Of a DNA stretch of 26,386 nt, positions 1,018-25,695 are shown piece after piece. This DNA comes from Alphaproteobacteria bacterium (GTDB lineage: Bacteria; Pseudomonadota; Alphaproteobacteria; UBA7887), in the NCBI GenBank assembly GCA_965216755.1, contig CBDCGL010000008.1:1-26386 (forward strand), written 5' to 3'. A program made the translations under genes and the position numbers. The stretch's first letter is position 1; every line of letters starts with the position of its first letter. Under the pieces are notes generated by a model, which was not told the DNA's origin, searched no databases, and saw nothing but the letters and a program-made list of their open reading frames with translations.

Positions 1018-2414
1018 TCATCACCGCTTCAGAAATCGAGGCGCGCAAATGGTTTGCCGTGCACCTGCTCAACACCACTCAGAATGATCATGTTGAGGTG
1101 CACGAGCTGCGCGGCTTTGCGTCTGTCAGCCTGAACGGTGTCATGATGGAAATCGCCGCGGTGGCCAGTGGGACCCGCTGCGAAAATCCGGTCTTCTCTG
1201 TGGTTCTCAACCCGCCGGATGGTGTCACGCTCACCTATGAGCAGTTCCACAACGCCATCCGGGAGGTTGAGAAGGCCAACGGCTTGCAGAATCATCCCCG
1301 CGCCGTGGTGTTCCATGAAAAGGACGGTGAACGCCACTGTCACGTGTTCTGGTCGCGGATCGACATTGACCGTATGAAGGCGATCAACCTTCCCTTCTAC
1401 AGAAAAAAGTTGCAAACCATTAGTCGGGAGCAGTTCCGCGCATTGGGCGTGGAACTGCCGCCTGGTCTGGTTGATCCGCGTGAACGCAACCCGCTGAATT
1501 TCACCCGCGAGCAGTGGCAGCAGGCCAAGCGCATGGGTGAAGATCCCCAGGCTCTAAAACAGGTTTTCTTGGAAGCCTGGCAACACAGTGACAGCCGCAA
1601 AGCCTTCCAAGCCGCTTTAGAGCGCAGTGGCCTCTACCTCGCCCGGGGCGACAAGCGCGGCTTTGTTGCCGTCGATTTTACCGGGTCGGTTTATTCGCTC
1701 TCGCGTTGGTTATCGGTGAAGAAGAAGGATATTGCCGCTCGCATCGGTGATTTGGCGGAATTGCCGACCGTCGATCAAACCAAGGCCTTGATCTCCGACA
1801 AATACACCCCTGCCCTGCGCAAAGCCGTTGATCAGATGGAGACGCAGCACAAGGAAGAGCGCCGCGTCTGGAACCGTGAGGCCAAGCAAATGCGGCGTAC
1901 TCACCGCGCCGCCCGCCAAGACCTTGTCACCGACCAGCACGCCCGCCGGCGACGCGAAGAGCATGCCCGTGCTGATTGGTACCGCAAAGGTCTGCGCGGT
2001 CTTGTCGACCGGTTTACCGGCCGCCACAAGGTGACGACCACCCGCATCCGCCGCGACCGGGCCGCCGCGGAAGAGCGCGACCGTCAGGAGCGGGACAAGC
2101 TCATCGCTGCCCAGCTCACCGAACGGCGGCAGGTTCAGGAAAATATCGATAAGCTGGAAGCCAGCCACATCCGCGACCGCAAGCGTATGCGCGAACGGCT
2201 GGGCGTTCTGTTTGAATTTGAGAATGACGACAAGCGTAATATCGCCCTGCAGCATGCCGCCGAGGTCGCCGCCCGCAAGGAAGAGCACCGCATGGCCCGC
2301 GAATTTAATCAGGCTGACAAGGACCGCACCATGGCCGACCAAATCCGCGACCAGCAGCAGGAGCAGGATCGCGGCCGTGGTCCAGATCGTGGACGGGAAT
2401 TTGACCCGAGCTGA
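1014..2414 (+). CDS. Relaxase/mobilisation nuclease (MOBP-like), charged coiled-coil C-terminus
   Basis: FSVVLNPP motif II, HEKDGERHCHVFWSRID HUH motif, LARGDKRGFVAVD; follows mobC. Confidence 0.92.
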   Translation: MIITASEIEARKWFAVHLLNTTQNDHVEVHELRGFASVSLNGVMMEIAAVASGTRCENPVFSVVLNPPDGVTLTYEQFHNAIREVEKANGLQNHPRAVVFHEKDGERHCHVFWSRIDIDRMKAINLPFYRKKLQTISREQFRALGVELPPGLVDPRERNPLNFTREQWQQAKRMGEDPQALKQVFLEAWQHSDSRKAFQAALERSGLYLARGDKRGFVAVDFTGSVYSLSRWLSVKKKDIAARIGDLAELPTVDQTKALISDKYTPALRKAVDQMETQHKEERRVWNREAKQMRRTHRAARQDLVTDQHARRRREEHARADWYRKGLRGLVDRFTGRHKVTTTRIRRDRAAAEERDRQERDKLIAAQLTERRQVQENIDKLEASHIRDRKRMRERLGVLFEFENDDKRNIALQHAAEVAARKEEHRMAREFNQADKDRTMADQIRDQQQEQDRGRGPDRGREFDPS

Positions 2415-2420
2415 TGGTTG

Positions 2421-2859
2421 ATGATTGATCCCGACAAGCTGACATCCGAACAGCAAAAGGCTTTGGATAACCTCGGCCGCCGGCAGGCCGACGAAAGGCG
2501 CGTTTTACAACAACAGCTTAGAAGCTAGGGAGCAATCGAAACTGCGGTCCCTGGCTAACCAGGTCACCAAAACGCTGTTATTCAAAGATCGGGAGGCCCG
2601 CAAAGAGGTTGAAAAATTTTTCGCCGATCAGCGTAAAGAGCGCACCTGGCATCAAGAGCGACTTGCCCGTGTCCGGGACCGCCACGCTGATGAATGGCAG
2701 GCGCTTTACGATCGGATTGCGTTGCAGGGCGACCGCGAAACCAGCCGAACCCACGCGGAAGACATCCAGCGGGAATTTAACCGTCACGATCAGGCGCGCG
2801 GCTATGCAGAGGAATTTACCAGGACCGCCAGGGACGACGGCGGCCACGGCCGCGATTGA
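2421..2859 (+). pseudogene. Coiled-coil mobilisation-associated ORF (~145 aa) split by a +1 frameshift
   Basis: ATG 2421 MIDPDKLTSEQQKALDNL...QQQLRS* (TAG 2526-2528); +1 frame from 2518 reads LEAREQSKLRSLANQ...REFNRHDQARG...GGHGRD* to 2859. Confidence 0.7.
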
Positions 2860-2956
2860 TATTCACGATGTTCAAGATGTGGTCGGTTACCTGTCCCAAA
2901 GCTAACACCGCCTCCGCTAGCAGGACAGGATCACCGCGACCCAGGCTACAAGATAT

Positions 2957-2965
2957 TGTGGATAA
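2957..2965 (-). promoter_or_regulatory. DnaA box upstream of repA
   Basis: TGTGGATAA = TTATCCACA, perfect consensus. Confidence 0.65.
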
Positions 2966-3015
2966 CTTTGTCATATGCACTAAAACTGGTGCCCGATCTT
3001 TGCTAGATTGCGGCC

Positions 3016-3996
3016 ATGGCGGCAGGACATCGACAGCACCGGCGCAAGTCGGGAAAAACAAGCTTTCAGACCATCGGACAGGTTCAGAATTTCCGGGATT
3101 TCTCCGACCCGGCGGTTTTCAAGCTTCTTGATGCCGGAGAGGAAATCCGGCAGCGCCCGGAACCGATTCCGTCGGACAAAGCGTTTCTGACGAAGTACCT
3201 CGTGCAAGTCACACTGCCCCACTCCAACCCCGGCAATGGCGTTCCGGTTTTCCGGCGCAAGAATGGCGACATCACCCTCACCGTCACCCCGGCATTTGAC
3301 GATAACAACCAGCCGCTACACCCTTACGGCACCGTTCCGCGGTTGCTTCTATTTTGGTTAACCCGCGAAGCGTTGCGGCAAAAATCCCATCGAATCGAAC
3401 TCTCCGATAGCATCAACGGCTTTCTGCTCGACCTCGGAATGAACCCCGCAAACGGGAGCGGCAAGCGCAGCGACGCGCGGCGTATGCGGGATCAGATGGA
3501 GCGGCTTTTCCGTGCCCGAATCAGCATCGATGCTAAGCTCAAAGATGGCACCAGATCAGGTCATGCTTGGCAGGATATGCAGGTCGCCAAGGCGGCTACA
3601 ACGTGGTGGGATTACAAATGCCCGGAGCAAGGCAGTTTCTTCGACAGCTGGGTTGAGCTGGACCGGGATTTTTATGAAGCAATCCTGAGCGACCCAGTGC
3701 CAGTTGATATGCGGGCTTTGCGGGAGCTTAAACGCTCACCCATGGCCCTCGACCTCTATGCCTGGGCCACCTATCAAACTTTTGTGATTACGCGTCGCGG
3801 CAAGGGACGCAAGGTTCCCTGGCGGGGGCTAATGCAACAGCTTGGCGCTGAGTATTCTGACTACAAGGATTTTAGGAAAGCCGCCATACAAGCCCTCAAA
3901 AAGGTCCAAATGGTCTTCCCTGGGCTGTTGATATCCGATGCCACGGGTGGCTTTGTTATCCACCCCAGCCAGCCGAGCATCCTTCCCAAAGAGTAG
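3016..3996 (+). CDS. repA: Plasmid replication initiator (RepA_C-like)
   Basis: VTLPHSNPG, PYGTVPRLLLFWL, PVPVDMRALRELKRSPMALDLYAW motifs; iterons directly downstream. Confidence 0.88.
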   Translation: MAAGHRQHRRKSGKTSFQTIGQVQNFRDFSDPAVFKLLDAGEEIRQRPEPIPSDKAFLTKYLVQVTLPHSNPGNGVPVFRRKNGDITLTVTPAFDDNNQPLHPYGTVPRLLLFWLTREALRQKSHRIELSDSINGFLLDLGMNPANGSGKRSDARRMRDQMERLFRARISIDAKLKDGTRSGHAWQDMQVAKAATTWWDYKCPEQGSFFDSWVELDRDFYEAILSDPVPVDMRALRELKRSPMALDLYAWATYQTFVITRRGKGRKVPWRGLMQQLGAEYSDYKDFRKAAIQALKKVQMVFPGLLISDATGGFVIHPSQPSILPKE

Positions 3997-4038
3997 GAAC
4001 ATCAATAGTTTCCGCACTGCCTGTGGGCCGTTTATGGC

Positions 4039-4299
4039 TCATCCACAGTTCTCGCCGTGACTTGGGATATCTTTGGTTATCCACGATGAAACGGTCCCCC
4101 CAGCCAACCAGGTGGGATGAAACGGTCCCCCTTTTCTTATATTTCCCGGTATTTCAAGGCGTTGTTCTACGGTGAAACAGTATCCCCTCGCCAACCAGGT
4201 GGGATGAAACGGTCCCCCCCTCCTGGGATGAAACGGTCCCCCCTACCTATAGATAGATCCTTAAAAGGCCTGTAGTTGCCACCCCGCAACTGTGGACAA
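4039..4299. other. Replication origin with near-consensus DnaA boxes
   Basis: tcatccaca 4039-4047, ttatccacg 4077-4085, tgtggacaa 4291-4299 flanking the iterons. Confidence 0.7.
4085..4242 (+). repeat. Iterons GATGAAACGGTCCCCC (4 perfect, 1 degenerate)
   Basis: Copies at 4085, 4116, 4203, 4227; degenerate ggtgaaacagtatcccc at 4171. Confidence 0.88.
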
Positions 4300-4407
4300 C
4301 CAACCCACGGACACTTGGTATCAACGTCTTTTTTTTGTTGCGGCCCCCACGCCTTCGGCGTGCCCGCCGCCTCCCCTCCCTGGAAGGTCCCTCAGGCTCA
4401 CCAAAAA

Positions 4408-4575
4408 CAGGGACACCGCCTGTTCTCTGATCCACCTTCGGGTGATTGATCTCCTATGCCGGACAGAACCTTCATGCAAGGCACGCTTCGCTCTTTGGCC
4501 TTGCATGAAGAACCATGTCCAACATGGCCGGAGAAATCACCCGAAGGCGGCTCCGAGAACAGGCTTATAGCCCTG
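4408..4575. other. Long imperfect palindrome (~170 bp); possible single-strand initiation signal or structured RNA
   Basis: Nested pairs caggg/ccctg, gcctgttctc/gagaacaggc, ccttcgggtgatt/aatcacccgaagg, ggaca/tgtcc, ttcatgcaagg/ccttgcatgaa. Confidence 0.6.
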
Positions 4576-4685
4576 GTTGCGTGGAGAGATTGCTTTGTCT
4601 GCAAGGGGGTGTATGGGCTGGCATTGTGCCCAAACGATATCTCTAACCTGACTTAACCATCCGAGAATGAAACCCAAGCGCCCGG

Positions 4686-4842
4686 ATGTGAAAGTATGAA
4701 GATCATAAGTTATGATATGATGTTCATACTTTGTGATCGTCATAAATATGAAGTTGCGTGCCTAAGCGAATCATCTCATACTGTATGAAGATATGATCTT
4801 CATATCATAAGTTCACATAGTATGAGGTTATGAACGTATGAA
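4686..4842. repeat. AT-rich TATGA/TCATA repeat tract; putative centromere/operator
   Basis: More than 10 direct and inverted TATGA(A/T) motifs directly upstream of the par genes. Confidence 0.72.
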
Positions 4843-5083
4843 GGCCGTCAAAACTGTCGACCTTGGTCAAACATCGCAAACTGATCCGTTCCTGAAAGCC
4901 GTTGCCGTCGAAAAAGCGGCTGCTGCTGAGATGGTACGGAAAACCTTCAATCTCGAAAAACGCCATCAGAACCAAATCAACGCTGTAGCGGCTGATCTGT
5001 CAGAGACAGCCGGAAAACCCATAGGCGCCTCCGAAGCGTTGCGCCACATCCTGGATGAAGCCGCCGGGAAGGTGGGCTCATGA
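4838..5083 (+). CDS. Small putative centromere-binding protein (RHH-like)
   Basis: 81 aa, VRKTFNL strand then helices (ASEALRHILD); ATGA-coupled to parA. Confidence 0.7.
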   Translation: MKAVKTVDLGQTSQTDPFLKAVAVEKAAAAEMVRKTFNLEKRHQNQINAVAADLSETAGKPIGASEALRHILDEAAGKVGS

Positions 5084-5721
5084 AAGGTGTTGCTTTCCTG
5101 GGCGACAAAGGCGGTGTGGGCAAGACCTCTTTAGCCCACGCTTTGGCGCTTGGTGCCGCATGGAAGGGCGTGCCAGGCTACTTGATGCATACAGACAACC
5201 GGGAACCGCTCAAAGTAAACGGCAGGCCGTACGCCTATTACGATGCCCGCGACCCCAAAGATCTGGAAACCCTTATCAAAACGGCCCTGAATAATGATGG
5301 GTTGTTTATCGTTGATGGTGGTGGGAACCGGCCGGAATTCGACAAATGGATTGCCGCCAGCATGGATTTGGTGCTGGTGCCGTTCATCCCCGATGAAGAA
5401 GCTATAAACACCAATCTGGCTCATATGAAGCGACTGGAACGGGCAGGGGCGAATGTTTGGGCTATCGTGAACGCCTACCCTGGAAGCCGTTTTGAGCGCC
5501 AGTATGTTGATCGGGAGCTACTGAAGGATCTTCCGCAGGACCGGATTCTTGCCAGGGTCCCGGAAGTGAAGGCCGTCAGAACACTGCGTGCCAGTGATAA
5601 ACCAGTGTTCAAAACGCCGCCGACGCGGGTCAACGATCTGTCCCGGAAGCTCTACCTGACGGTAAATCAAGCTCTACTTGCAATTGATCGGGCAGCAGAG
5701 CCCACCCGGCTGTCAGCATAA
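5080..5721 (+). CDS. parA: ParA-family Walker ATPase (short, type Ib-like)
   Basis: KGGVGKTS deviant Walker A, FIVDGGG Walker B, DLVLVP. Confidence 0.9.
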   Translation: MKGVAFLGDKGGVGKTSLAHALALGAAWKGVPGYLMHTDNREPLKVNGRPYAYYDARDPKDLETLIKTALNNDGLFIVDGGGNRPEFDKWIAASMDLVLVPFIPDEEAINTNLAHMKRLERAGANVWAIVNAYPGSRFERQYVDRELLKDLPQDRILARVPEVKAVRTLRASDKPVFKTPPTRVNDLSRKLYLTVNQALLAIDRAAEPTRLSA

Positions 5722-5780
5722 CCAACATCCGTGCTTAGAGAAATATTTTGTAAGCTATTTATTTTCTGTACAATGCCAGG

Positions 5781-6284
5781 GTGTACTGGACCTATGGCAT
5801 TGTTGACCCTGTAACCGGTCTGTTCGTCTATATCGGGCAGACCAGCGATTTCGATCGGCGCAAATCCCAACATCTCACTGACCGGCTGCGTAAAACGACG
5901 CCGGCGCGCGGCAGCATCCAGGAATGGCTGCGCGACATGCGGAAGAGGGGGCTGGAACCGGATTTCGTGATCCTGGAGATCGTCGAAACCGAAGAAGAAA
6001 GCTTGCTATCGGAAAGCAAATGGGTCGAGAAATTCGCCGCGATTGGCCACCCGTTATTGAATCGCTGGCAAGAGCATCGAGACCTGATCCGGCAAGGCCG
6101 GGCCTCACAATATGAAGCGCTGATTTTTCAAGACGGCAAGGCATGCAGGGTAGGGGAGGCCCGTCCCAATCGGCGCAACTCAGGCTTTGCCGTTATGCTG
6201 GATAAAGACGTGAAGATAGAATTCGACGGCATGGTTCTGGAAGGGGCGCGGATTGACGTGTTGGAGCCGAAGCCGGAGGCCTAA
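5781..6284 (+). CDS. GIY-YIG nuclease-domain protein
   Basis: YWTYGI...YIGQTSDFDRRKSQH...E...LLN motif order; GTG start. Confidence 0.82.
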   Translation: MYWTYGIVDPVTGLFVYIGQTSDFDRRKSQHLTDRLRKTTPARGSIQEWLRDMRKRGLEPDFVILEIVETEEESLLSESKWVEKFAAIGHPLLNRWQEHRDLIRQGRASQYEALIFQDGKACRVGEARPNRRNSGFAVMLDKDVKIEFDGMVLEGARIDVLEPKPEA

Positions 6285-6586
6285 CTGGATGTGGCGTCTG
6301 GCTGAACACGCTTTACATTCTTGGTGATTTCGCGCTCGCGTTTGCGCGTTTCGGCAAGATCATAAGCCATTTGCAGACGCATCCACATTTCGGGTGTACT
6401 GCCAAACGCGGCGGCCAACCGGAATGCCATTTCGGCTGAAATCCCGGAACGACCGTTGAGCAAATTGCTCAGCGTCTGACGGTTAACACCCAGCACCTCA
6501 GCCGCTTCGTTGACACTCATGCCAAGTTCTTCAATGCAATCCTGCCGGACAATTCTGCCCGGGTGCGCGGGGCTATGCATAGGCAT
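6281..6586 (-). CDS. higA: HigA antitoxin (HTH)
   Basis: HPGRIVR...AAEVLGVNRQTLSNLLNGRSGISAEMAFRL...WMRLQMAYDL. Confidence 0.95.
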   Translation of the reverse strand: MPMHSPAHPGRIVRQDCIEELGMSVNEAAEVLGVNRQTLSNLLNGRSGISAEMAFRLAAAFGSTPEMWMRLQMAYDLAETRKREREITKNVKRVQPDATSS

Positions 6587-6600
6587 CGTTCTCTCCTTTC

Positions 6601-6879
6601 CTAATGGTAATCGATCAGATCAACATCTGTGGCTTCACCGTCGCTGAAGCGGAAAATGATCCGCCAATTGGCTCGCACGGTGACGCTCCAAAATCCTCTC
6701 AAGTCGCCCGTCAACTTATGGAGGCGGTAACCCGTCACATCGATATCGTCGATGGTCAGGGCCATATCGAGGACAGACAGGATATTCTCAATCCGGTCGG
6801 CCATATCAGCCCTGACCCGGCTTCTGTCACCGCGCTCATACAGGCGTTTCAATCCCCGATGACGGAACGATCCAATCAT
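6601..6879 (-). CDS. higB: HigB toxin (RelE family)
   Basis: MIGSFRHRGLKRLYE...LHKLTGDLRGFWSVTVRANWRIIFRF...DYH; toxin-first order. Confidence 0.95.
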   Translation of the reverse strand: MIGSFRHRGLKRLYERGDRSRVRADMADRIENILSVLDMALTIDDIDVTGYRLHKLTGDLRGFWSVTVRANWRIIFRFSDGEATDVDLIDYH

Positions 6880-6885
6880 ACTTTC

Positions 6886-6914
6886 AGTGTACAGTGATAA
6901 TTATCGCTTATCAA
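6886..6914 (-). promoter_or_regulatory. higBA sigma70 promoter with palindromic operator
   Basis: TTGATA-17 nt-TACACT; palindrome GATAATTATC in spacer. Confidence 0.7.
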
Positions 6915-7135
6915 GAAGAAACTTATTATTTGCATAGCTAATGTTTTGTGGGTACCGTTAATTTTGTCAGCTGCAAATTCAGCTGATCGGGTTTCACAGC
7001 TCGCGCAAGCCGGCCTTTGTATTGGCCGGATGGCGGCGAAATACGGCCTCCGGCTCAATACGCCGCACTGTGCTTGCGCAGTTGTGAACGTCCGGCCACC
7101 AGTGCCGGACGGATCATTAAACCGCAAGGCGCGGG

Positions 7136-7339
7136 ATGGAAATGCCGAAAGAAGATATTGATACAGCCGTCGTTCAAGCTTTTTTGAGGCAAGTTGAGGT
7201 CATGGCCGGTGCCGAGGGGCGGGAGCTGCTATTGCTGTTTATGGCGATAAGAGACCAGCAGCTTCGTGATGATGTTGTCAGATTTGCAGAGGCTATCGCC
7301 AGCGAAAAAGGGTGGTTAGCCAAGGACGACCGAAAATGA
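7136..7339 (+). CDS. Small helical protein resembling the C-terminal part of XRE regulators
   Basis: EGRELLLLFMAIRDQQLRDDVVRFAEAIA; ATGA overlap with next ORF. Confidence 0.65.
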   Translation: MEMPKEDIDTAVVQAFLRQVEVMAGAEGRELLLLFMAIRDQQLRDDVVRFAEAIASEKGWLAKDDRK

Positions 7340-7524
7340 GCACCACTAAGGTTTTCTATGAACTGCCGCCCGGATTGCCGATAGATCAATTCAGCATCGA
7401 CGTCACAAGCGATGAGCTGACATTTTTGATGGGCGATGACGCCGTTGTCGAAGCTGAACCGGGACGATTTGAGTTTACGGATTTGGGCAAAGACCGGATA
7501 CGGGAAGCGCCCGACCCGGAATAA
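7336..7524 (+). CDS. Small acidic hypothetical protein (62 aa)
   Basis: ATG 7336 overlaps upstream stop; MSTTKVFYELPPG... Confidence 0.6.
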   Translation: MSTTKVFYELPPGLPIDQFSIDVTSDELTFLMGDDAVVEAEPGRFEFTDLGKDRIREAPDPE

Positions 7525-7633
7525 TCCGCTTGTAAGTCGTCTGGCGAGCCAGGCGCAGATAATGGGGGGCATACTAACCGTGCAGGACGTTCGCTTCCCA
7601 AGGCTGGGTTGACCGAGTTCTGCTTTTTTGTGC

Positions 7634-7661
7634 CAGTGCGATAACTGACATTATGGACAGT
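7634..7661 (-). other. dif-like 11-6-11 recombination site A
   Basis: cagtgcgataa-ctgaca-ttatggacagt; reverse complement shares ccataa-tgtc..-ttat with site B. Confidence 0.55.
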
Positions 7662-7701
7662 TCTTTGTCGCTCCCATCAGCGTATCCCGACGCATTCTTT
7701 G

Positions 7702-7889
7702 AACCGACGGAGACAGAATAACACCGTGCTCGCGGCTTCCGTCCGCTGCGAAACAGAAGGGTTGCTAAGCTCCTGTCGTCGCTAAGCCAACCCATAACCG
7801 TTTCGTTCGGCTACAGCCACTCCGCGCGGTGTTATTTCGGAGATTGTCGGCTCCGGGGGAATGTCAGGCCTTCGTCTCACCAAGGGAAT
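7702..7889 (+). repeat. Left ~188-bp inverted repeat with internal hairpin
   Basis: Reverse complement of 11025-11211, 7 substitutions + 1 indel. Confidence 0.93.
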
Positions 7890-7979
7890 GGACGTTTAAG
7901 GCTTAAGTCATCAACACGCTAGGTTGAGGTCAATTGTCAAGCGCGTTTCTTGCATATCATTTTTCAAAAAGTGACTAGC

Positions 7980-8114
7980 TCACCAGATTAGAAGAATTTC
8001 GATTTTTTTTAATAAGGCCACAATCCCGATCCCGACCGCCCCGACGATCGCTACGATATCCCTTAAGATAGATGTCAGAAGGCTCAACTGCTCTAACCAG
8101 TCCATCGTTGGCAT
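7980..8114 (-). CDS. 44-aa hydrophobic peptide (possible small membrane protein)
   Basis: MPTMDWLEQLSLLTSILRDIVAIVGAVGIGIVALLKKIEILLIW*; below ORF-track cutoff; weak RBS. Confidence 0.4.
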   Translation of the reverse strand: MPTMDWLEQLSLLTSILRDIVAIVGAVGIGIVALLKKIEILLIW

Positions 8115-8175
8115 GTGGGAACGGAGTGCAACCCCTTCAATACGGTGTATTGGCTGATCCTGAAGACTGAGCCAT

Positions 8176-8211
8176 TCAAATCCCGATCTTCTCGACCTCG
8201 TCGAGGGTGAC
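8176..8211 (-). repeat. Diverged duplicate of the recombinase 3' end (VTLDEVEKIGI*)
   Basis: 31/36 nt identical to 8955-8990 (VTLDEVERIGI*), same orientation. Confidence 0.88.
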
Positions 8212-8236
8212 AGGACTCAAGACCGGCCCAACACCG

Positions 8237-8947
8237 TTAAGGGACAGGCCGCGGCCATGTGCTTGCAGGTCCAAGGGAGCCGTGCACAACCGATTCAGTT
8301 ATGGCCGCAACAAGGTGTTTGCCATGAAACTCTAGGAACCACATGGTCCCCAACGGAGCATCATCGGCCCGGGCATACATATAGCGAAACTGTATTTCAC
8401 CAACTGAACCAGCACTGCAGTACTTCCCATATGCTCGAATTAGTTCCGGGACGTTCTGGGAATTATAACCTTGGGCAAAGATCTGAAATTTCACAGCCGG
8501 ACCCAAAGGTTCGCCATAGCAGTGATAGAAAAGGCCGCGGACCACTCTTTCAATGAAAGCGTTGTGGGTGGCGACGGACAAAGGGACCACGCCAGCGCAT
8601 CCTATAAGCACGCCGCCTTCTGATCTAACGTCAACTTCACGAAGCCGGCCCAACACTGCGCGGTTTATGCGCTGGTTATGTCTGATTGTCGGTAGAGCGT
8701 GATTTCTCCAAAAAGCTTTGCTTTCTGGCGTGTTGACGCCTACCAGCAAACTCAGCGCCACTCGGAATTCTTCGTCGATATCAGAAAAGCCTTTGTTGCA
8801 CGGGCGACAGGCCGGCACCGTTATCATGTTGCTCGGGCGCGGCTTCACAAACACGGATCTTGGTGGCACATGATCGCCTTTTCCCGGATGTGCTTGCCGA
8901 GTGCCGCAGTAGGCACATTTGTCACTTTTTGGCCGCCGGGAAACCAT
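8237..8947 (-). CDS. HNH-endonuclease-like protein
   Basis: CAYCG...DHVPP...VPACRPCN zinc/HNH pattern; starts 7 nt after recombinase stop. Confidence 0.8.
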   Translation of the reverse strand: MVSRRPKSDKCAYCGTRQAHPGKGDHVPPRSVFVKPRPSNMITVPACRPCNKGFSDIDEEFRVALSLLVGVNTPESKAFWRNHALPTIRHNQRINRAVLGRLREVDVRSEGGVLIGCAGVVPLSVATHNAFIERVVRGLFYHCYGEPLGPAVKFQIFAQGYNSQNVPELIRAYGKYCSAGSVGEIQFRYMYARADDAPLGTMWFLEFHGKHLVAAITESVVHGSLGPASTWPRPVP

Positions 8948-8954
8948 CAGCTAC

Positions 8955-9956
8955 TCAAATCCCGATCCGCTCAACCTCATCCAGGGTGACCTGGTCGTTT
9001 GTGCGGTCGTAGAGCTGCGTGGTCCGCGGGCTTTCATGGGCCGCCATCATTTGAGCGTTTTCCAAGGTGCCGCCGTTCTCCCTATAGGCAGTGATCCCGG
9101 TGGCCCGGAAGCTATGGCAACTGATCGGGGTCGCAATACCGGCCTGCCGCGCGCGTCGCTTGACCATATCTAAGGCCATCCGCCGCTTCACAGGTTCTGC
9201 TGTGAGCGGGCCATTGCGCCACGGCACACTGCGGAATAGCCACCCTTTCTTGTCGCTGGTGATACAAGCGGCGTTGATATAGGCGTCGAGGTAGTCTTCC
9301 AGTGAATGGTGGGCCGGGATTTCGTGGAACTTGCCACCCTTTTCATGAAGGCGGAGCCACCAGCGTTTGCCGGCTGGATAGTAGTCTTCAACCCGCATGC
9401 TCAGGGCGGCGCTCACCCGCGCAAAGCTGTAGATCATCACGCCAATAAGGGCGCGATCCCGCAAGCCGGTCACCGTATCTGTTGGTATGCTATTTAACAG
9501 CTGCCGCGCTTCATCGACGCTTAGTACGGGCGTTTTGCCCCGCTTGACCTTATGGCTGGGTCCGCGGACGGCATGCGCCGGATTGAACGGCAGGACGCCG
9601 CCGGTGACCAGCCAATCGAACAGCGCGCGGATGGCGGCCAAATGCTGCTTCACAGTCGGAGCCGGGCGCAGATGGGTCTGCTCCTCAATGAACACTGCGA
9701 TATGGGTCGGCTGGATATCCTCCAGCCGGCACAGCCGATTTGCTTCACACCAGGCAAAGAACCCTGCGGCGGCGCGGCCATAAGCGGCCCGGGTGTTAGC
9801 GTTGCGGATATTGGCAGTGAAGAACTCAATGAAGCGCCGGGTGGCCCGGTCGCCGTCATCAGCGATGATTCCGGGCACAATCAGCCCGGTCTGTGGATTG
9901 GCCCCGGCGATCAACGCCGGGTCACCTTGCTGCAGTTGAAGGTCGTGTGAAGTCAT
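8955..9956 (-). CDS. Tyrosine recombinase/integrase
   Basis: Catalytic R (FARVS), K (EKGGK), HxxR (HSFR), H (AHES), Y (QLYDR); likely start ATG 9956 (MTSHDL). Confidence 0.95.
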   Translation of the reverse strand: MTSHDLQLQQGDPALIAGANPQTGLIVPGIIADDGDRATRRFIEFFTANIRNANTRAAYGRAAAGFFAWCEANRLCRLEDIQPTHIAVFIEEQTHLRPAPTVKQHLAAIRALFDWLVTGGVLPFNPAHAVRGPSHKVKRGKTPVLSVDEARQLLNSIPTDTVTGLRDRALIGVMIYSFARVSAALSMRVEDYYPAGKRWWLRLHEKGGKFHEIPAHHSLEDYLDAYINAACITSDKKGWLFRSVPWRNGPLTAEPVKRRMALDMVKRRARQAGIATPISCHSFRATGITAYRENGGTLENAQMMAAHESPRTTQLYDRTNDQVTLDEVERIGI

Positions 9957-9997
9957 AATAGCCCCCGAATATTGCCTTAACGAAATGACGTAATAAA

Positions 9998-10025
9998 GAC
10001 ACCCATAATGTCCTTTATGACCGTC
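9998..10025 (+). other. dif-like 11-6-11 recombination site B upstream of recombinase
   Basis: gacacccataa-tgtcct-ttatgaccgtc; both arms read GACnnnCATAA. Confidence 0.7.
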
Positions 10026-10137
10026 TTTCAGAGTACACCAATTAGCCGGCAAAGGGGAGGGTGGTCACCGACAATATCCAGAGATAGTTTCCTGATGACT
10101 ATGGAACGGGCCGCTCGGCAAACACATCTCTTGAGAA

Positions 10138-11037
10138 ATGACAGATCGTCCTGAAGCGATTTTTTTTGAGATTAGGCAGGCCCTCGACTTCTTTCTCTAT
10201 CCGGTTTGGCAATTCTTAAATTCCGATTTCGCTGCAACGTTATTAGCGACTTTGGTAGCAGCGTTCGCGGGTGCTTTTGGCGCGCACGTAATTATCGAAA
10301 AGACCAAGCGCAAGCAGGAGCAGCAGCGGGAGCTGCGCATCACAAACGCGGCGATAATGGTATCAGCGGATATCTGCAGTCTATTTCTTAACCTCAAAAG
10401 ACAGCATGTAAAAGATTTAAAGCAGAAATTTCAAGATGATATCGAGAATTACGCCATAGTGAGCGGCCGCAGTCAAAAAAAAGGTTGGCCAGGGCAAATA
10501 TTTATTCTTCAGTCCAATCTTACTACATTGGATCCGGTAAGAATACCAGGAGAGATACTTGTTAGGCAGGTTTTCGAAGATATTTCGCCTGGACAAAGAG
10601 CATATACACTCACGAACACCCTTATAAGATCTGCCCATTCCCTAAATAGATTTATCAATCTTCGGAACGAATTTGGTCAAAAAATGAAAGGTTTGGATAA
10701 TAATGATATTTGCAATCTCTATTTGGGTCTTCCAGACGAGCAAGGTCATGTGGATCGGACCTATACAGATTCTGTAAAGCATATTTGCAATCTCACAGAC
10801 GATTGCATCTTTTTCAGCAAAACACTCACCAATGATTTGGTAGAACACGGCGAGCTGCTAAAAACCCGCCTGGGTAAAGGCGCTCCGAGAGTGAATAAGC
10901 CGAACTTCAGCAACGCTGAGAAAGAAGGCCTGGTGCCTGACCTACAACGACATAAAGACTGGTTGGGAATGTTTGTTAAGCATGACAGCCTTGAGCCCTC
11001 ACGGCGATCGAAACTATTCAGCCTATTCCCTTGGTGA
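10138..11037 (+). CDS. Hypothetical protein, N-terminal TM helix, AT-rich cargo
   Basis: 299 aa; FAATLLATLVAAFAGAFGAHVII then basic/coiled segment; stop codon lies inside the right IR. Confidence 0.85.
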   Translation: MTDRPEAIFFEIRQALDFFLYPVWQFLNSDFAATLLATLVAAFAGAFGAHVIIEKTKRKQEQQRELRITNAAIMVSADICSLFLNLKRQHVKDLKQKFQDDIENYAIVSGRSQKKGWPGQIFILQSNLTTLDPVRIPGEILVRQVFEDISPGQRAYTLTNTLIRSAHSLNRFINLRNEFGQKMKGLDNNDICNLYLGLPDEQGHVDRTYTDSVKHICNLTDDCIFFSKTLTNDLVEHGELLKTRLGKGAPRVNKPNFSNAEKEGLVPDLQRHKDWLGMFVKHDSLEPSRRSKLFSLFPW

Positions 11038-11211
11038 GACGAAGGCTTGACATTCCCCCGGAGCCGACAATTTCCGCAATAACACCGCGCGGAGGGGCTG
11101 TAGCCGAACGAAACCGTTATGGGTTGGCTTAGCGACGAAGGAGCTTAGCAACCCTTCTGTTTCGCAGCGGACGGAAGCCGCGAGCACGGTGTTATCCTGT
11201 CCCCGTCGGTT
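11025..11211 (-). repeat. Right ~187-bp inverted repeat with internal hairpin
   Basis: Reverse complement of 7702-7889. Confidence 0.93.
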
Positions 11212-13758: not shown

Positions 13759-14178
13759 ATGGCCAAGAAACGAAGGTTCAAAACAATTGTTAATATCGAG
13801 CCACCGGAATTGGTCCCGGAGTTGGATCGCTTGCAGAAAGAGTCCGGTGAAAATATGGGCGTTTTCTTTGGTAGATGCCTTGCCCACGCATTACCGCTAA
13901 TCAGAAAAGAGGAAGCCCAAAAACGTACCATTCCGGACCTCCTAGAGATGATCGACGAAATGCGTAGGGAAATCCAAACGCTAAGGAGCGATGTCAGGTC
14001 CTTGAAGGCACAACTCGCCGCCTCGAAACCGGATTATTCGATGTGGCCCACCATCGCTAACCCGCCTGTGGCCGAAAACGCATTCCGCGTCAACAGGAGG
14101 CGAAAACCCACGGCGCAGAGAGCCGATTATTCGATGTGGCACACCATCATTGATGCGCCGGTAGCCGGCAGCGCCTGA
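13759..14178 (+). CDS. Hypothetical protein: RHH-like N-terminus, coiled coil, duplicated C-terminal motif
   Basis: GGAG RBS, ATG 13759; DYSMWPTIANPPVA / DYSMWHTIIDAPVA. Confidence 0.65.
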   Translation: MAKKRRFKTIVNIEPPELVPELDRLQKESGENMGVFFGRCLAHALPLIRKEEAQKRTIPDLLEMIDEMRREIQTLRSDVRSLKAQLAASKPDYSMWPTIANPPVAENAFRVNRRRKPTAQRADYSMWHTIIDAPVAGSA

Positions 14179-14316
14179 TGTTTACAGAAGTAAACAGTTA
14201 TCTATCGATTTTTGAGCTTCAGATTGCCCCACACAGAGCACCAAGCAGGGTTTTGGGTCCAATCATACCAATAAAGTTTTCGTCGCTGTACGGGGACCCT
14301 CAGGGCTTTTGAATTT

Positions 14317-15837
14317 TCACGCCGGATCGAATTTCCCCTCAAACAAGGCGTGACGGTCGTATTTGATGCGCTGGATGATCGCCGGCGGCAAGCTTGGCGT
14401 GATCACCACGGCGCGTTGTTGTGGGTCATCTCTTCCCACGAATCTGGAAACTTCCTCGGGTCCTAAAAGGTCGGTTTGTTGATACGACAAGTTGTCACCA
14501 GTCACCCCGTGTTTTCGCTGTTCAATAGATGGGTCGGATTTGGAAGGAACTGCAACGGTCGTCTTACCCAGCCGCTTGGCGATGTACTCCAAAGTGGTCG
14601 GGTCGTTGTTGCCGAAAAAGACTTGTGTGCCGCTATTGCCTAAGAACGTCTCATAGCTGGCCCCATAGAGCCGTTTGATCTGCGCTAGGTCTTGCAAAAT
14701 GAGGAGCAGCTTACAGCTGTAGCCCGCTATTAATCCGGCAGCGGTCTCGATTTGCCGCATATGGCCCAGCACCGCGAATTCTTCCAAGCACATCAGCACC
14801 GGGACCGCCGGCCGAGCGTCCTCCGCCTCCATCATGTCGAAGACCTGGTTTATGAACAGCCGCAGCCAGCGTGCACAGCTCGACATCTTCGACGGCGGCA
14901 GTACCAGGTAGATGGTCGTTGGCTTGCGCTTGAGATCGGCCAGATCAAAATCATGCCCTGACACCACATTTTGGATTTCCGGGTACCTCAGGAATTTCAG
15001 GTGCCGCCGCATGGTCGACAGCACCGACCCGCGCTCCGCTTTCGGCCGGTCGAAAAATTCATCGCGGGCGTCAAGGACAGCCCCTTTCAGCCGGTCTGGG
15101 AAGAGGCCCATTTGGTGCCGCAGCGCCGGCAAACCTTGTAGCTCTGACCCGTCGTTGCAGGTGTGAACGTTTTGCGGGGTCAGCAATTTGAAGATGGTCG
15201 CCAGATTCCGTTCATGGCTGTGGCCGGGGTAGGTAGCCGTTTGCAGGATCAAACCTTCAATCCCGGCGGTGGCGCTGTCGTCCCAATGCGGGTCTTTGCC
15301 GTCACCGCGCACCACAATGCCGTCGGCCAGTGACGCTGCATTAGCGATCATTTCCGGTTTTTCTTCGCCGGGAAAATCTTCCGGCAGGTGCGCCAGGAAG
15401 TTAAAGCGCCGGCGATAGTCCTTCACGTGCTCATGGGTAATTTCAAACGGGTCAAGGATATGCACATCCTGGCCCAGGGCGGCACGCCGCCGCGCCGTGA
15501 TATTGGCCAGCTCCCCTTTCGGGTCGATGACCAAGGTAGACCCCGCATATTCCAGCAAAGTCGGTACGATAATGGAGCGGCCTTTCCCCGCCCGGCTGGC
15601 ACAACACACAATCGCGTGGCGATCGTCGCCCAAGCCTAGCGGCTTGCCGCCGCTCACCACGTATTCGCGTGCTTCTTCATCGAACTGACAGGTACCGTCG
15701 ATCACACCCAGGAACAGCTTGGCGTTGTTGAACGTAAATTTCCGGCTGTCCCTCAACCAGTTTTCGGGCAGCCAGGCCGACATTGGCATCTTGCCGGTTT
15801 TTGCACCGCCGCGTGGGAGGTCGTCGAGGACGCTCAT
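14317..15837 (-). CDS. traG: TraG/VirD4-family type IV coupling protein
   Basis: Walker A ASRAGKGR, VIDPKGEL, WDDSA, Walker B LEEFAVLG, ILQDLAQIKRLYG; GGAGA RBS before ATG 15837. Confidence 0.92.
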   Translation of the reverse strand: MSVLDDLPRGGAKTGKMPMSAWLPENWLRDSRKFTFNNAKLFLGVIDGTCQFDEEAREYVVSGGKPLGLGDDRHAIVCCASRAGKGRSIIVPTLLEYAGSTLVIDPKGELANITARRRAALGQDVHILDPFEITHEHVKDYRRRFNFLAHLPEDFPGEEKPEMIANAASLADGIVVRGDGKDPHWDDSATAGIEGLILQTATYPGHSHERNLATIFKLLTPQNVHTCNDGSELQGLPALRHQMGLFPDRLKGAVLDARDEFFDRPKAERGSVLSTMRRHLKFLRYPEIQNVVSGHDFDLADLKRKPTTIYLVLPPSKMSSCARWLRLFINQVFDMMEAEDARPAVPVLMCLEEFAVLGHMRQIETAAGLIAGYSCKLLLILQDLAQIKRLYGASYETFLGNSGTQVFFGNNDPTTLEYIAKRLGKTTVAVPSKSDPSIEQRKHGVTGDNLSYQQTDLLGPEEVSRFVGRDDPQQRAVVITPSLPPAIIQRIKYDRHALFEGKFDPA

Positions 15838-16355
15838 GACAGTCTCCGTGTCTCGGGCCGCAACAAACAGCGCGCAATATGGCAAAACTGGTTTGCCCCA
15901 TATTTGCCCGCTGATGCCGGTCTGATGATCAGCGCCCTACCGGAGGGCACTCACACATTCACGCCATCTGGGGGCTTCTCAGGGCCAAACACGCCTATAT
16001 CCGTGTCCGCCGAGGGTGCGGTAAAATGCAAGCCGATGGGTGTCGTGATTATGTCTCGACTATCGGCGCGCGCCGATGGGTTCATGGCGTCAAAGCGTTA
16101 ATCATTTGTATGATGATGTTTGGTACGCTTTGAGCAAGTTGTGTGTTGTGGCCCATAAATGGGCCATCCCCTGCGGGGACAAGCAACACGAACTTGCCAA
16201 GGAGGGCCCGCTGCGCGCCCTCCGTTGGATCCTCCCCGGCTTGGTGCTGCCGCCCTGGCATCGAGCCAGGCCAGCAGCACGGCACCGTTTCGTCGGTGCA
16301 TCACGACCAAGGGTAGCGCCCCTTGGATGGCTTTCATTGGGCGGAGGTGTTGCCC

Positions 16356-16751
16356 ATGCCACGACCGCGCAAAGCCAACGGCCGCTCCTTCCAGCTCAAG
16401 GCCCGTTTCACGGCCACTGAGCTGGAAGCCGTCAATGCCCGTGCTGCACACACGGGCATGACGGTTAGCGACCTGCTTCGCCACGGCGTGCTGGACAACC
16501 CCCCGCCCCCGACCCGCCTTCATCGCCGGGTCCAATGTCCGGAGGAATTGGCCCGGCTGCTTGGGCAGGTCGGCCGCATCGGCAATAACGTCAACCAGCT
16601 GGCCCGTATTGCCCATGCGGGATCATGGCCTGATAGCGAGCGCATCACCCAGGCCGTCGCCGACATCCAGTGGATGCGCGCCCGGCTGATGGATGCGCTC
16701 GGCTATGATCCGGTGGACAGTGATCCCCCTGCCCCGGTTCTTACGCCATGA
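16356..16751 (+). CDS. mobC: MobC (copy 2)
   Basis: Same translation as 622-1017. Confidence 0.88.
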   Translation: MPRPRKANGRSFQLKARFTATELEAVNARAAHTGMTVSDLLRHGVLDNPPPPTRLHRRVQCPEELARLLGQVGRIGNNVNQLARIAHAGSWPDSERITQAVADIQWMRARLMDALGYDPVDSDPPAPVLTP

Positions 16752-23628: not shown

Positions 23629-23914
23629 GGACGTTTAAGGCTTAAGTCATCAACACGCTAGGTTGAGGTCAATTGTCAAGCGCGTTTCTTGCATATCATT
23701 TTTCAAAAAGTGACTAGCTCACCAGATTAGAAGAATTTCGATTTTTTTTAATAAGGCCACAATCCCGATCCCGACCGCCCCGACGATCGCTACGATATCC
23801 CTTAAGATAGATGTCAGAAGGCTCAACTGCTCTAACCAGTCCATCGTTGGCATGTGGGAACGGAGTGCAACCCCTTCAATACGGTGTATTGGCTGATCCT
23901 GAAGACTGAGCCAT

Positions 23915-23950
23915 TCAAATCCCGATCTTCTCGACCTCGTCGAGGGTGAC
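23915..23950 (-). repeat. Duplicated recombinase 3' end (copy 2)
   Basis: As 8176-8211. Confidence 0.85.
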
Positions 23951-23975
23951 AGGACTCAAGACCGGCCCAACACCG

Positions 23976-24686
23976 TTAAGGGACAGGCCGCGGCCATGTG
24001 CTTGCAGGTCCAAGGGAGCCGTGCACAACCGATTCAGTTATGGCCGCAACAAGGTGTTTGCCATGAAACTCTAGGAACCACATGGTCCCCAACGGAGCAT
24101 CATCGGCCCGGGCATACATATAGCGAAACTGTATTTCACCAACTGAACCAGCACTGCAGTACTTCCCATATGCTCGAATTAGTTCCGGGACGTTCTGGGA
24201 ATTATAACCTTGGGCAAAGATCTGAAATTTCACAGCCGGACCCAAAGGTTCGCCATAGCAGTGATAGAAAAGGCCGCGGACCACTCTTTCAATGAAAGCG
24301 TTGTGGGTGGCGACGGACAAAGGGACCACGCCAGCGCATCCTATAAGCACGCCGCCTTCTGATCTAACGTCAACTTCACGAAGCCGGCCCAACACTGCGC
24401 GGTTTATGCGCTGGTTATGTCTGATTGTCGGTAGAGCGTGATTTCTCCAAAAAGCTTTGCTTTCTGGCGTGTTGACGCCTACCAGCAAACTCAGCGCCAC
24501 TCGGAATTCTTCGTCGATATCAGAAAAGCCTTTGTTGCACGGGCGACAGGCCGGCACCGTTATCATGTTGCTCGGGCGCGGCTTCACAAACACGGATCTT
24601 GGTGGCACATGATCGCCTTTTCCCGGATGTGCTTGCCGAGTGCCGCAGTAGGCACATTTGTCACTTTTTGGCCGCCGGGAAACCAT
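23976..24686 (-). CDS. HNH-like protein (copy 2)
   Basis: As 8237-8947. Confidence 0.8.
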   Translation of the reverse strand: MVSRRPKSDKCAYCGTRQAHPGKGDHVPPRSVFVKPRPSNMITVPACRPCNKGFSDIDEEFRVALSLLVGVNTPESKAFWRNHALPTIRHNQRINRAVLGRLREVDVRSEGGVLIGCAGVVPLSVATHNAFIERVVRGLFYHCYGEPLGPAVKFQIFAQGYNSQNVPELIRAYGKYCSAGSVGEIQFRYMYARADDAPLGTMWFLEFHGKHLVAAITESVVHGSLGPASTWPRPVP

Positions 24687-24693
24687 CAGCTAC

Positions 24694-25695
24694 TCAAATC
24701 CCGATCCGCTCAACCTCATCCAGGGTGACCTGGTCGTTTGTGCGGTCGTAGAGCTGCGTGGTCCGCGGGCTTTCATGGGCCGCCATCATTTGAGCGTTTT
24801 CCAAGGTGCCGCCGTTCTCCCTATAGGCAGTGATCCCGGTGGCCCGGAAGCTATGGCAACTGATCGGGGTCGCAATACCGGCCTGCCGCGCGCGTCGCTT
24901 GACCATATCTAAGGCCATCCGCCGCTTCACAGGTTCTGCTGTGAGCGGGCCATTGCGCCACGGCACACTGCGGAATAGCCACCCTTTCTTGTCGCTGGTG
25001 ATACAAGCGGCGTTGATATAGGCGTCGAGGTAGTCTTCCAGTGAATGGTGGGCCGGGATTTCGTGGAACTTGCCACCCTTTTCATGAAGGCGGAGCCACC
25101 AGCGTTTGCCGGCTGGATAGTAGTCTTCAACCCGCATGCTCAGGGCGGCGCTCACCCGCGCAAAGCTGTAGATCATCACGCCAATAAGGGCGCGATCCCG
25201 CAAGCCGGTCACCGTATCTGTTGGTATGCTATTTAACAGCTGCCGCGCTTCATCGACGCTTAGTACGGGCGTTTTGCCCCGCTTGACCTTATGGCTGGGT
25301 CCGCGGACGGCATGCGCCGGATTGAACGGCAGGACGCCGCCGGTGACCAGCCAATCGAACAGCGCGCGGATGGCGGCCAAATGCTGCTTCACAGTCGGAG
25401 CCGGGCGCAGATGGGTCTGCTCCTCAATGAACACTGCGATATGGGTCGGCTGGATATCCTCCAGCCGGCACAGCCGATTTGCTTCACACCAGGCAAAGAA
25501 CCCTGCGGCGGCGCGGCCATAAGCGGCCCGGGTGTTAGCGTTGCGGATATTGGCAGTGAAGAACTCAATGAAGCGCCGGGTGGCCCGGTCGCCGTCATCA
25601 GCGATGATTCCGGGCACAATCAGCCCGGTCTGTGGATTGGCCCCGGCGATCAACGCCGGGTCACCTTGCTGCAGTTGAAGGTCGTGTGAAGTCAT
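24694..25695 (-). CDS. Tyrosine recombinase (copy 2)
   Basis: As 8955-9956. Confidence 0.93.
   Translation of the reverse strand: MTSHDLQLQQGDPALIAGANPQTGLIVPGIIADDGDRATRRFIEFFTANIRNANTRAAYGRAAAGFFAWCEANRLCRLEDIQPTHIAVFIEEQTHLRPAPTVKQHLAAIRALFDWLVTGGVLPFNPAHAVRGPSHKVKRGKTPVLSVDEARQLLNSIPTDTVTGLRDRALIGVMIYSFARVSAALSMRVEDYYPAGKRWWLRLHEKGGKFHEIPAHHSLEDYLDAYINAACITSDKKGWLFRSVPWRNGPLTAEPVKRRMALDMVKRRARQAGIATPISCHSFRATGITAYRENGGTLENAQMMAAHESPRTTQLYDRTNDQVTLDEVERIGI

Follow-up and report, generated by a model that had tools for sequence, protein, structure and literature searches.

The window analysed here, the whole of contig CBDCGL010000008.1 (1-26386; 26,386 nucleotides (nt); GenBank assembly GCA_965216755.1) from a member of the alphaproteobacterial lineage UBA7887, carries a gene for a Xer-like tyrosine recombinase, called int below, the last 36 nt of which recur downstream in direct orientation around a single cargo gene with an HNH-like N-terminus. 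Orphan 3' fragments of the recombinase gene recur near its homologues in unrelated bacterial lineages, and end at or close to the stop codon. The reading that we prefer, and to which we give about an even chance, is that the gene's own 3' end serves as its attachment (att) site, at which DNA with a related tail would insert and in doing so restore the open reading frame (ORF). The parts of the locus on which this reading turns are as follows.

8955..9956, minus strand: int, tyrosine recombinase gene, 333 amino acids (aa), Xer-like, plasmid-borne (Pfam, alignment A3 and a profile alignment to XerD)
8955..8990, minus strand: functional int tail, VTLDEVERIGI plus stop; proposed attL-like junction of the resident int with an incoming tail plus cargo (repeat family D7, alignments)
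8237..8947, minus strand: cargo ORF, 236 aa, with its ATG 7 nt past the int stop; the sole supported ORF between the tails
8170..8211, minus strand: orphan (spare) tail, VTLDEVEKIGI plus stop plus 6 nt of post-stop similarity, on no recombinase ORF; proposed attR-like junction (D7)
23909..24729, minus strand: concatemer copy of orphan tail, cargo and int tail (D7 at 23909-23950 and 24688-24729)

The two 36-mers, 8955-8990 and 8176-8211, match at 31 of 36 positions in direct orientation on the minus strand, and the extended pair 8170-8211 / 8949-8990, which includes 6 nt beyond the stop, at 35 of 42 (83%); the similarity begins at GTCACC, ends about 6 nt after the stop codon and holds no identical block longer than about 13 nt. 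In minus-strand reading the int tail runs GTC ACC CTG GAT GAG GTT GAG CGG ATC GGG ATT TGA, and the spare tail differs from it by three synonymous third-position changes (CTG>CTC, GAT>GAC and GTT>GTC) and by CGG>AAG, which replaces arginine with lysine, a residue found at this position in the family members P0060 and P0093 (alignment A3). Synonymous changes together with a lysine already known in the family mean that the spare tail diverged within the coding sequence of a related gene, as a preliminary description of this DNA had concluded from the same five differences; its further observations, that the recombinase tail recurs around exactly one gene, that this gene starts 7 nt after the recombinase stop and that a small ORF lies behind the spare tail, agree with the repeat search and the coordinates. 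The open frame upstream of the spare tail extends for 31 codons only. A hairpin-capable sequence, CCAGG-TCAC-CCTGG (8981-8994, minus strand), lies exactly at the start of the tail homology and is missing from the spare copy.

The contig repeats a circular plasmid of about 15.7 kb head to tail as a 1.68x concatemer, with a period of 15,734-15,739 nt by repeat search, a variation that indicates the small insertion and deletion errors typical of long-read assembly. The D7 copies, spaced 14,960 and 779 nt apart across the concatemer, therefore belong to one plasmid and are not four independent copies, and the second unit is no independent evidence. The concatemer, with its varying period, is also the one circumstance that speaks for reading the repeat as chance similarity or an assembly artefact, and the chance of that is practically nil: the best 36-mer match in 200 shuffles of the plasmid unit reached 23/36, and the binomial expectation for at least 31/36 is at most 1.3e-7 per unit. 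Public contigs from two samples of one study cross both junctions without differences (X2 7998-8861 and 8903-9794; X3 8480-9435), so that the arrangement is no artefact of this assembly, and the same architecture is present in other genomes. Shuffles and independent contigs thus refute chance and artefact alike.

The enzyme belongs to the tyrosine recombinase superfamily, with 76 bits against PF00589 (cutoff 27.1, E 3.9e-21) and 26.7 bits against the N-terminal SAM-like domain PF02899 (cutoff 22.3, E 6.9e-6), the only two domains reported for it by Pfam. A profile alignment to XerD (1a0p) gives E 1e-16, with XerD and XerA the nearest solved structures, and places the catalytic residues at R180, K209, H281, R284, H307 and Y316, matched through the XerD residue numbering; in alignment A3 all are invariant except K209, which is conserved in at least 90% of sequences. 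The scores against the NCBIfam equivalogs for XerD (114.3 bits, cutoff 329.6) and XerC (92.5 bits, cutoff 335.15) do not reach their cutoffs, and the integron integrase model TIGR02249 gives 31.1 bits against a cutoff of 265 and covers residues 256-318 only. An AlphaFold2 model built from 22 sequences was too poor to be used (mean pLDDT 54.6, about 30 in the tail).

This is a very large family, with at least 8000 relatives, all at E<=1e-30, and a full-length relative on 130 plasmids. The closest non-self relative has less than 70% identity, and the best 80 metagenome loci at most 66%. The C-terminal 11 residues follow the pattern (I/V)(T/S)LDE(V/I)ERIx(I/F) a few residues after the catalytic tyrosine, and this peptide (ITLDEVERIxI) matches the active-site motifs in its degree of conservation. 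The family is rare in viral contigs, where true members made up 4 of the 22 loci returned, none of the four with an orphan. Transfer RNA (tRNA) genes lie within 10 kb at 2 of 56 loci and adjacent to int at none; the usual integrase targets are therefore absent. At four loci (L175 6049-6438, L176 18045-18413, L177 45226-45618 and L004 7552-7974) an ORF annotated as hypothetical, about 120-140 aa long, overlaps the recombinase gene at its start, which suggests a two-gene operon in proteobacterial and Singulisphaera plasmids; the window plasmid is without this ORF.

The preliminary description had proposed searching for the tail behind homologues of the recombinase, and spare tails do recur there. 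Orphans were sought by peptide motif, ungapped DNA match, tblastn and self-blastn in 163 sequences (80 genome loci, 80 metagenome loci, 2 plasmid loci and one window plasmid unit), the genome and metagenome loci being the best 80 matches per collection and no random sample. Orphan 3' fragments of the recombinase gene were found in 15 of the 163, or 13 independent loci once duplicates are merged (L065 equals L143, L117 equals L157): the window, L023, L030, L037, L058, L065, L089 (with two orphans), L117, L121, L128, L148, L159 and L160. They come from Binatia, Alphaproteobacteria, Planctomycetota, Bryobacterales, Vicinamibacteria and soil or peat metagenomes. Among 401 Planctomycetota genomes screened by pattern search, 14 gave any match at all, and one further orphan, G162, came to light.

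All counted orphans lie on the int strand, downstream of the gene in 11 independent loci and upstream in two (L121 and L128); an inverted tail copy at L057 was left out of the count. In the 13 orphans measured, homology ends between -8 and +8 nt from the stop. The lengths, taken from the start of homology to the end of the stop, fall at 36 (the window), 48, 52, 54, 55 and 60 nt in six loci, and at 92, 119, 119, 130, 137, about 138, about 182, 189 and 320 nt in the remainder. The six short orphans sit +404 to +1681 nt behind the gene with a short cargo segment between, and in the clear cases (the window, L023, L037 and L148) this segment holds a single cargo ORF on the int strand, 7-73 nt past the stop. 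Orphan and int copies are 10-22% diverged over 36-137 nt. Direct repeats surround the insert, one of them completing the target gene, in the window, in the 12 other independent loci and in G162. No orphan 5' or internal fragments were found: N-terminal and central control 11-mers gave no orphan at 9/11 or better, and the high-identity orphans of C-terminal control motifs all lay within 3' fragments or within the frameshifted second copy of L066. Oriented, stop-anchored 3' orphans of this kind match the signature of integrative elements at the 3' ends of their target genes.

One locus, L089, is a two-unit array, in which both orphans share a 119-nt breakpoint and the cargo units of 4-5 kb are without an integrase. 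Each of its units (1802-10690) consists of a tetratricopeptide repeat (TPR) protein and an NMT1-like binding protein; the units are mutually inverted, with 67-74% DNA identity, and the orphan tails are direct. Near-identical direct repeats of 2.3 kb flank the recombinase region of L037 (about 7476-9805 and 15598-17927), and near-identical inverted repeats of 1.5 kb that of L071 (about 5728-7215 and 14152-15640); both pairs look like insertion-sequence copies forming composite units. Three whole plasmids with two places reported for each gave no orphans, and their second recombinase is of a different family (28% identity).

Cargo varies from locus to locus. The cargo ORFs searched (window, L023, L037, L117 and L148) are unrelated to any other locus, and the types seen include the HNH-like protein, a 331-aa protein without family and two membrane proteins of 183 and 114 aa. 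In the window, L023, L037, L148 and L089 the cargo showed no recombinase domain, and tblastn gave no extra int-like matches inside. The window cargo has a His-Me/HNH zinc-finger-like N-terminus of about 60 aa and a C-terminal part of about 170 aa that matches no family; its match to HNH_5 (E 2.8e-4, 21.2 bits) falls under the Pfam cutoff of 27.5, and that to PADLOC PDC-M01B is weak (E 1.2e-5). The cargo family is rare, with 56 relatives and a best non-self identity of 37%. GC content at third codon positions is 0.53 in the cargo, 0.72 in int, 0.59-0.71 in the plasmid backbone and 0.45 in a divergent 299-aa ORF (ORF299). The cargo thus departs from both int and the backbone, which counts in favour of insertion at the tail. 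In three plasmid contexts no recombinase of the int family lies beside an HNH homologue; one homologue, distant and HNH-like, lies in L167 (Celeribacter pP73D, 3342-4630), 30 nt after a small serine recombinase gene and among restriction-modification genes.

Such a cargo raises the possibility that the HNH gene is a free-standing homing endonuclease, which cut the conserved recombinase tail of a plasmid still without a cassette and was copied across along with a recoded, protective version of that tail. The HNH-like N-terminus would suit this, as would the occurrence of nuclease genes near related recombinases elsewhere, such as a GIY-YIG gene overlapping the match in H20, or the pP73D homologue just mentioned. 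The account is nonetheless very improbable: the HNH_5 match lies under its cutoff, duplication of the target is not normal for homing, and no nuclease-like cargo was found at the other orphan loci scanned (L023, L037, L148, L089 and L065). Cargo that changes from locus to locus, and is HNH nowhere else, speaks against an event driven by HNH.

The preferred reading, insertion at the gene's own 3' end, may be pictured as a short series of steps. The attachment site would overlap the last 40-60 bp or so of the recombinase gene itself. A circular DNA with a related tail and the HNH-like gene would undergo Campbell-type insertion by recombination with the resident tail, the incoming tail would restore the recombinase ORF, and the new gene would come to lie 7 nt behind the int stop, in the orientation of int and with no terminator-like site called between them in a consensus scan, while the old tail and its former neighbour would be displaced 779 nt downstream. 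The end product would be an integrase-free cargo between two direct att-like sites, formally a cassette or a cis-mobilizable unit, which the neighbouring enzyme could excise or move. In this scheme the crossover presumably lies within the tail, the incoming DNA was probably a small circle and not a whole replicon trimmed later, and the enzyme that catalyses the event is likely to be this recombinase. A minimal circle of tail plus gene is favoured by the tight class of 36-60 nt.

A simpler origin would need no site-specific recombinase: a single crossover by homology or microhomology on a short int 3' fragment, or an error of replication or duplication, with int as no more than a conserved landmark beside a variable region. 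A Campbell-type crossover on any shared segment gives the same direct repeat, the tail bears no sign of a DNA-level site, and insertions beside int without orphans occur (L013), as does a simple tandem duplication beginning behind the stop (L033). We nevertheless regard this origin as quite unlikely. The 14% divergence over 36 nt makes RecA-type homology poor, and copies 10-22% diverged, with about 13 nt as the longest identical block in the window, are a poor RecA substrate; the same 60 nt or so of one gene family would have to be struck repeatedly in unrelated phyla, and the changes in the spare tail are of the coding type. Given the degree of divergence, the coding-type changes, the presence of the enzyme at the junction and the absence of an integrase from the scanned cargo, site-specific recombination by this family is the most economical account.

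A closer competitor, which we hold to be rather unlikely, is tandem accretion followed by decay, the pathway by which cis-mobilizable elements (CIMEs) arise. A whole related plasmid or element with its own recombinase would have fused with the resident one, at the tails by site-specific recombination or elsewhere, and later deletions would have taken nearly all of the second element, sparing the HNH gene as its first downstream gene and the last 36 nt of one recombinase copy; no mobile cassette of tail plus gene would ever have existed. Second or tandem copies of int do exist, some of them partly broken: in L041, in L066 (a frameshifted copy plus tail at +9.1 kb), in L067 and in pPOT-3 (frameshifted). 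The remnants are graded (92, 119, 130, 137, about 138, about 182, 189 and 320 nt), the longer ones mostly kilobases off; in L121 and L128 the remnant lies upstream of the intact copy, and in L159 a 179-nt remnant lies 84 nt past the stop without any cargo. Decay to integrase-free, att-flanked units followed by accretion is described for ICEs (integrative and conjugative elements) as well as for IMEs (integrative and mobilizable elements) in the part of the review used here (PMC5704250), and a cointegrate-plus-deletion route yields the same end product. Against this, by rough arithmetic, random deletion ends in a 1-kb gene would make the observed distribution very unlikely: they would not put six independent remnants within 36-60 nt and leave none of 15 longer than 320 nt; nor were 5' or internal remnants found. 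Accretion, too, must begin with a joining at or close to the tail, and for this reason it is less an exclusive rival of insertion at the gene's own 3' end than a reading that overlaps with it. Trimming of a whole related replicon also happens, as the longer, distant remnants and the broken second gene copies show.

Several observations weigh against insertion at the tail as we propose it, beginning with the choice of loci, which are best matches and not a random draw. Arrays occur in 1 of the 14 orphan-bearing loci only; breakpoints are clustered and not identical (36 to 320 nt), with no common identical crossover block across loci; and longer remnants tend to lie further from int, as expected for decayed second gene copies. 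The family consensus tail does hold a palindrome, CGCTCGAC-GAG-GTCGAGCG, averaging 7.9 Watson-Crick pairs out of 12, where slid partners reach 2.2-2.5, but its arms show no covariation (|z|<=2.1 at 11 variable pairs) and it is no stronger in orphan-bearing loci. Column composition alone explains the pairing, and for these reasons the palindrome was dropped as evidence of a site. Synonymous-codon entropy of the tail columns lies within or near the range of other columns, two isoleucine columns being higher, and gives no DNA-level constraint. No joint that skips the 779 bp was seen in the contigs of 3 public runs (Logan), contigs of a kind that drop rare forms. L013 gained two genes beside int with no orphan detected, and no tail copy lies at the second junction of the L033 duplication, so that these two loci show the int flank to change also by routes that leave no tail copy.

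The claims of the preliminary description fared unevenly in this light. Insertion of a unit of tail plus cargo gains from the recurrence of oriented, stop-anchored 3' orphans with varied cargo, and loses from the lack of DNA constraint on the tail and from the cointegrate-plus-deletion route, which gives the same product. The shared 5' breakpoints that it expected are present in part, with six orphans within 36-60 nt and two identical ones in L089, and breakpoints overall are not identical. Its comparison with integrons found no support in arrays, which at 1 of 14 orphan-bearing loci make multi-cassette build-up untypical, or in the integron integrase model, which is unmatched. With no excision junction seen, no constraint on tail DNA and rare arrays, the system resembles accretion and CIME elements as much as it does integrons.

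Across the family, the DNA 3' of int is hypervariable; anti-phage defence genes, SIR2-HerA among them, occur in it. At 97 loci with a same-strand ORF starting no more than 200 nt after the int stop, the neighbours vary extremely and include Hma/DISARM-type SNF2 helicases (5/97), HsdM, GmrSD, Mrr, STAND NTPases and antitoxins. An HmaA/DrmD-like SNF2 helicase gene directly abuts the int stop in L012, L016 and L019, and a comparison of L013 (11005-13822) with L012 (10915-14361) places a SIR2-HerA pair inserted exactly between int and this helicase. In L033 (int stop at 6506) a 92%-identical duplication of downstream sequence, +0..378 and +1970..2346, begins at the first base after the stop.

Among known systems the locus probably works most like CIMEs and accretion. 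In the part of the review that describes them, these consist of cargo without integrase between two direct att sites, serial integration pushing older units outward (PMC5704250). Integrase-free cargo flanked by direct repeats is what is found here, as in the accretion of CIMEs, ICEs and IMEs at the 3' ends of target genes; what sets the locus apart from those elements is a target that is the recombinase gene itself, a plasmid as platform, units that go down to one gene (404-1681 nt) and the lack of a tRNA or housekeeping gene as target. Tycheposons and tRNA islands, as far as they are described in the portion of the preprint used here (bioRxiv 10.1101/2020.12.28.424599), likewise leave partial target 3' ends scattered behind an intact copy, together with integrase remnants, and have older elements displaced outward by newer ones. 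The partial 3' copies behind an intact gene are shared with int; the tycheposon target is a tRNA gene and the elements bring their own integrase, whereas the leftovers here are pieces of the recombinase gene.

A proposed recombination site within the enzyme's own gene is shared with the archaeal SSV-type 'suicidal' integrases (SSV1, pTN3 and pT26-2), which, by the portion of the published account on which we draw, carry the att site inside their own gene in a compact module of int plus att, are split and inactivated by integration, bear a Phage_integr_3 domain and represent a type reported only in archaea (PMC8371274). Unlike them, int would have its site at the extreme 3' end and keeps an intact ORF beside the insertion, and Pfam reports PF00589 and PF02899 only, with no Phage_integr_3.

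The likeness to integrons lies in a tyrosine recombinase beside a site of single, promoterless-looking genes, with variable cargo and defence genes in the flank. Integron cassettes have Pc at attI as their promoter and are expressed divergently from intI, whereas the inserts here lie downstream of the recombinase and in its orientation. The IntI model is also unmatched, arrays are rare (1/14 loci), and the unit boundaries are the coding 3' end of int and not attC: they show no palindrome covariation, and two units occur only in L089 (no dedicated attC model was run). Small gene modules bounded by short recombinase sites are familiar on plasmids from Xer/dif, from integrative mobile elements exploiting Xer (IMEXs) and from the pdif modules of Acinetobacter. 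The enzyme is Xer-like in sequence, with XerD as its best solved relative (E 1e-16), but misses the equivalog cutoffs, and the sites are direct repeats of its own coding end and not 28-bp dif-like sites. By enzyme and site the system is not an integron, and by enzyme scores it is not Xer.

The locus lies within a larger module, of which the remaining features are these.

7702..7889: inverted repeat of about 188 nt, left copy (I2/I3)
7980..8114, minus strand: hydrophobic ORF, 44 aa, starting 61 nt past the orphan tail (ORF list)
10138..11037, plus strand: ORF299, divergent 299-aa ORF of no known family, low in GC like the cargo, inside the repeat-bounded module
11025..11211: inverted repeat of about 188 nt, right copy (I2/I3)

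The inverted repeats, 96-97% complementary, enclose a 3.1 kb module of small ORF, orphan tail, HNH gene, int and ORF299, and could mark a mobile or invertible module; the inverted form was not seen in public contigs, which cannot show its absence. Each of the two copies makes up a long imperfect hairpin of its own (z -3.3, minus strand) without Rfam match, and within the genome the repeats are confined to this plasmid. The 44-aa ORF, with no match in Pfam or NCBIfam and no relatives among the loci, may be a former neighbour of the recombinase; ORF299 has no match in Pfam, NCBIfam or PADLOC. A consensus scan, the only method applied, called no promoter or terminator on the minus strand from int to the small ORF, and the window has 0 matches in Rfam at gathering thresholds.

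The plasmid unit also encodes the following backbone proteins.

589-1017: NikA/MobC-like protein
1014-2414: MobA/VirD2-type relaxase
3016-3996: RepA_C replication protein
14317-15885: type IV coupling protein

A ParA-like ATPase, a GIY-YIG protein and a HigB/HigA pair complete the list, which identifies a small mobilisable plasmid. Just downstream of the RepA_C gene (4097-4242) are three 35-nt direct repeats with the core CCAACCAGGTGGGATGAAACGGTCCCCC, iteron-like in character (repeat family D6). A search for an empty site found no close DNA relative of the plasmid in the plasmid collection, in the near search or in a distant search with 7890-8954, and 40 related genomes gave no match to plasmid DNA except one weak match.

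The unusual feature of this locus is its target, the recombinase gene itself. In the literature searched (mainly abstracts, with subscription journals thinly covered) no bacterial family is described that targets its own 3' end with the gene restored. A more general statement, which we put forward tentatively and think somewhat unlikely, is that a widespread bacterial Xer-like family, on plasmids and chromosomes of Planctomycetota, Acidobacteriota, Proteobacteria, Binatia and others, may use its own last 40-60 bp or so as an attachment site and capture integrase-free units that bring a replacement tail. If true, this would be a gene-capture platform that arose independently of integrons, a second natural design beside them, and would give bacteria a non-suicidal equivalent of the archaeal integrases with an att site in their own gene. 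Recombinase and site would form one inseparable module of about 1 kb, a compact and self-contained integration tool that accepts foreign genes without being destroyed. Any plasmid with the module would become a docking platform, and capture would seed the defence-rich variable region behind int genes and so explain the variable, phage-defence-containing DNA that is found there.

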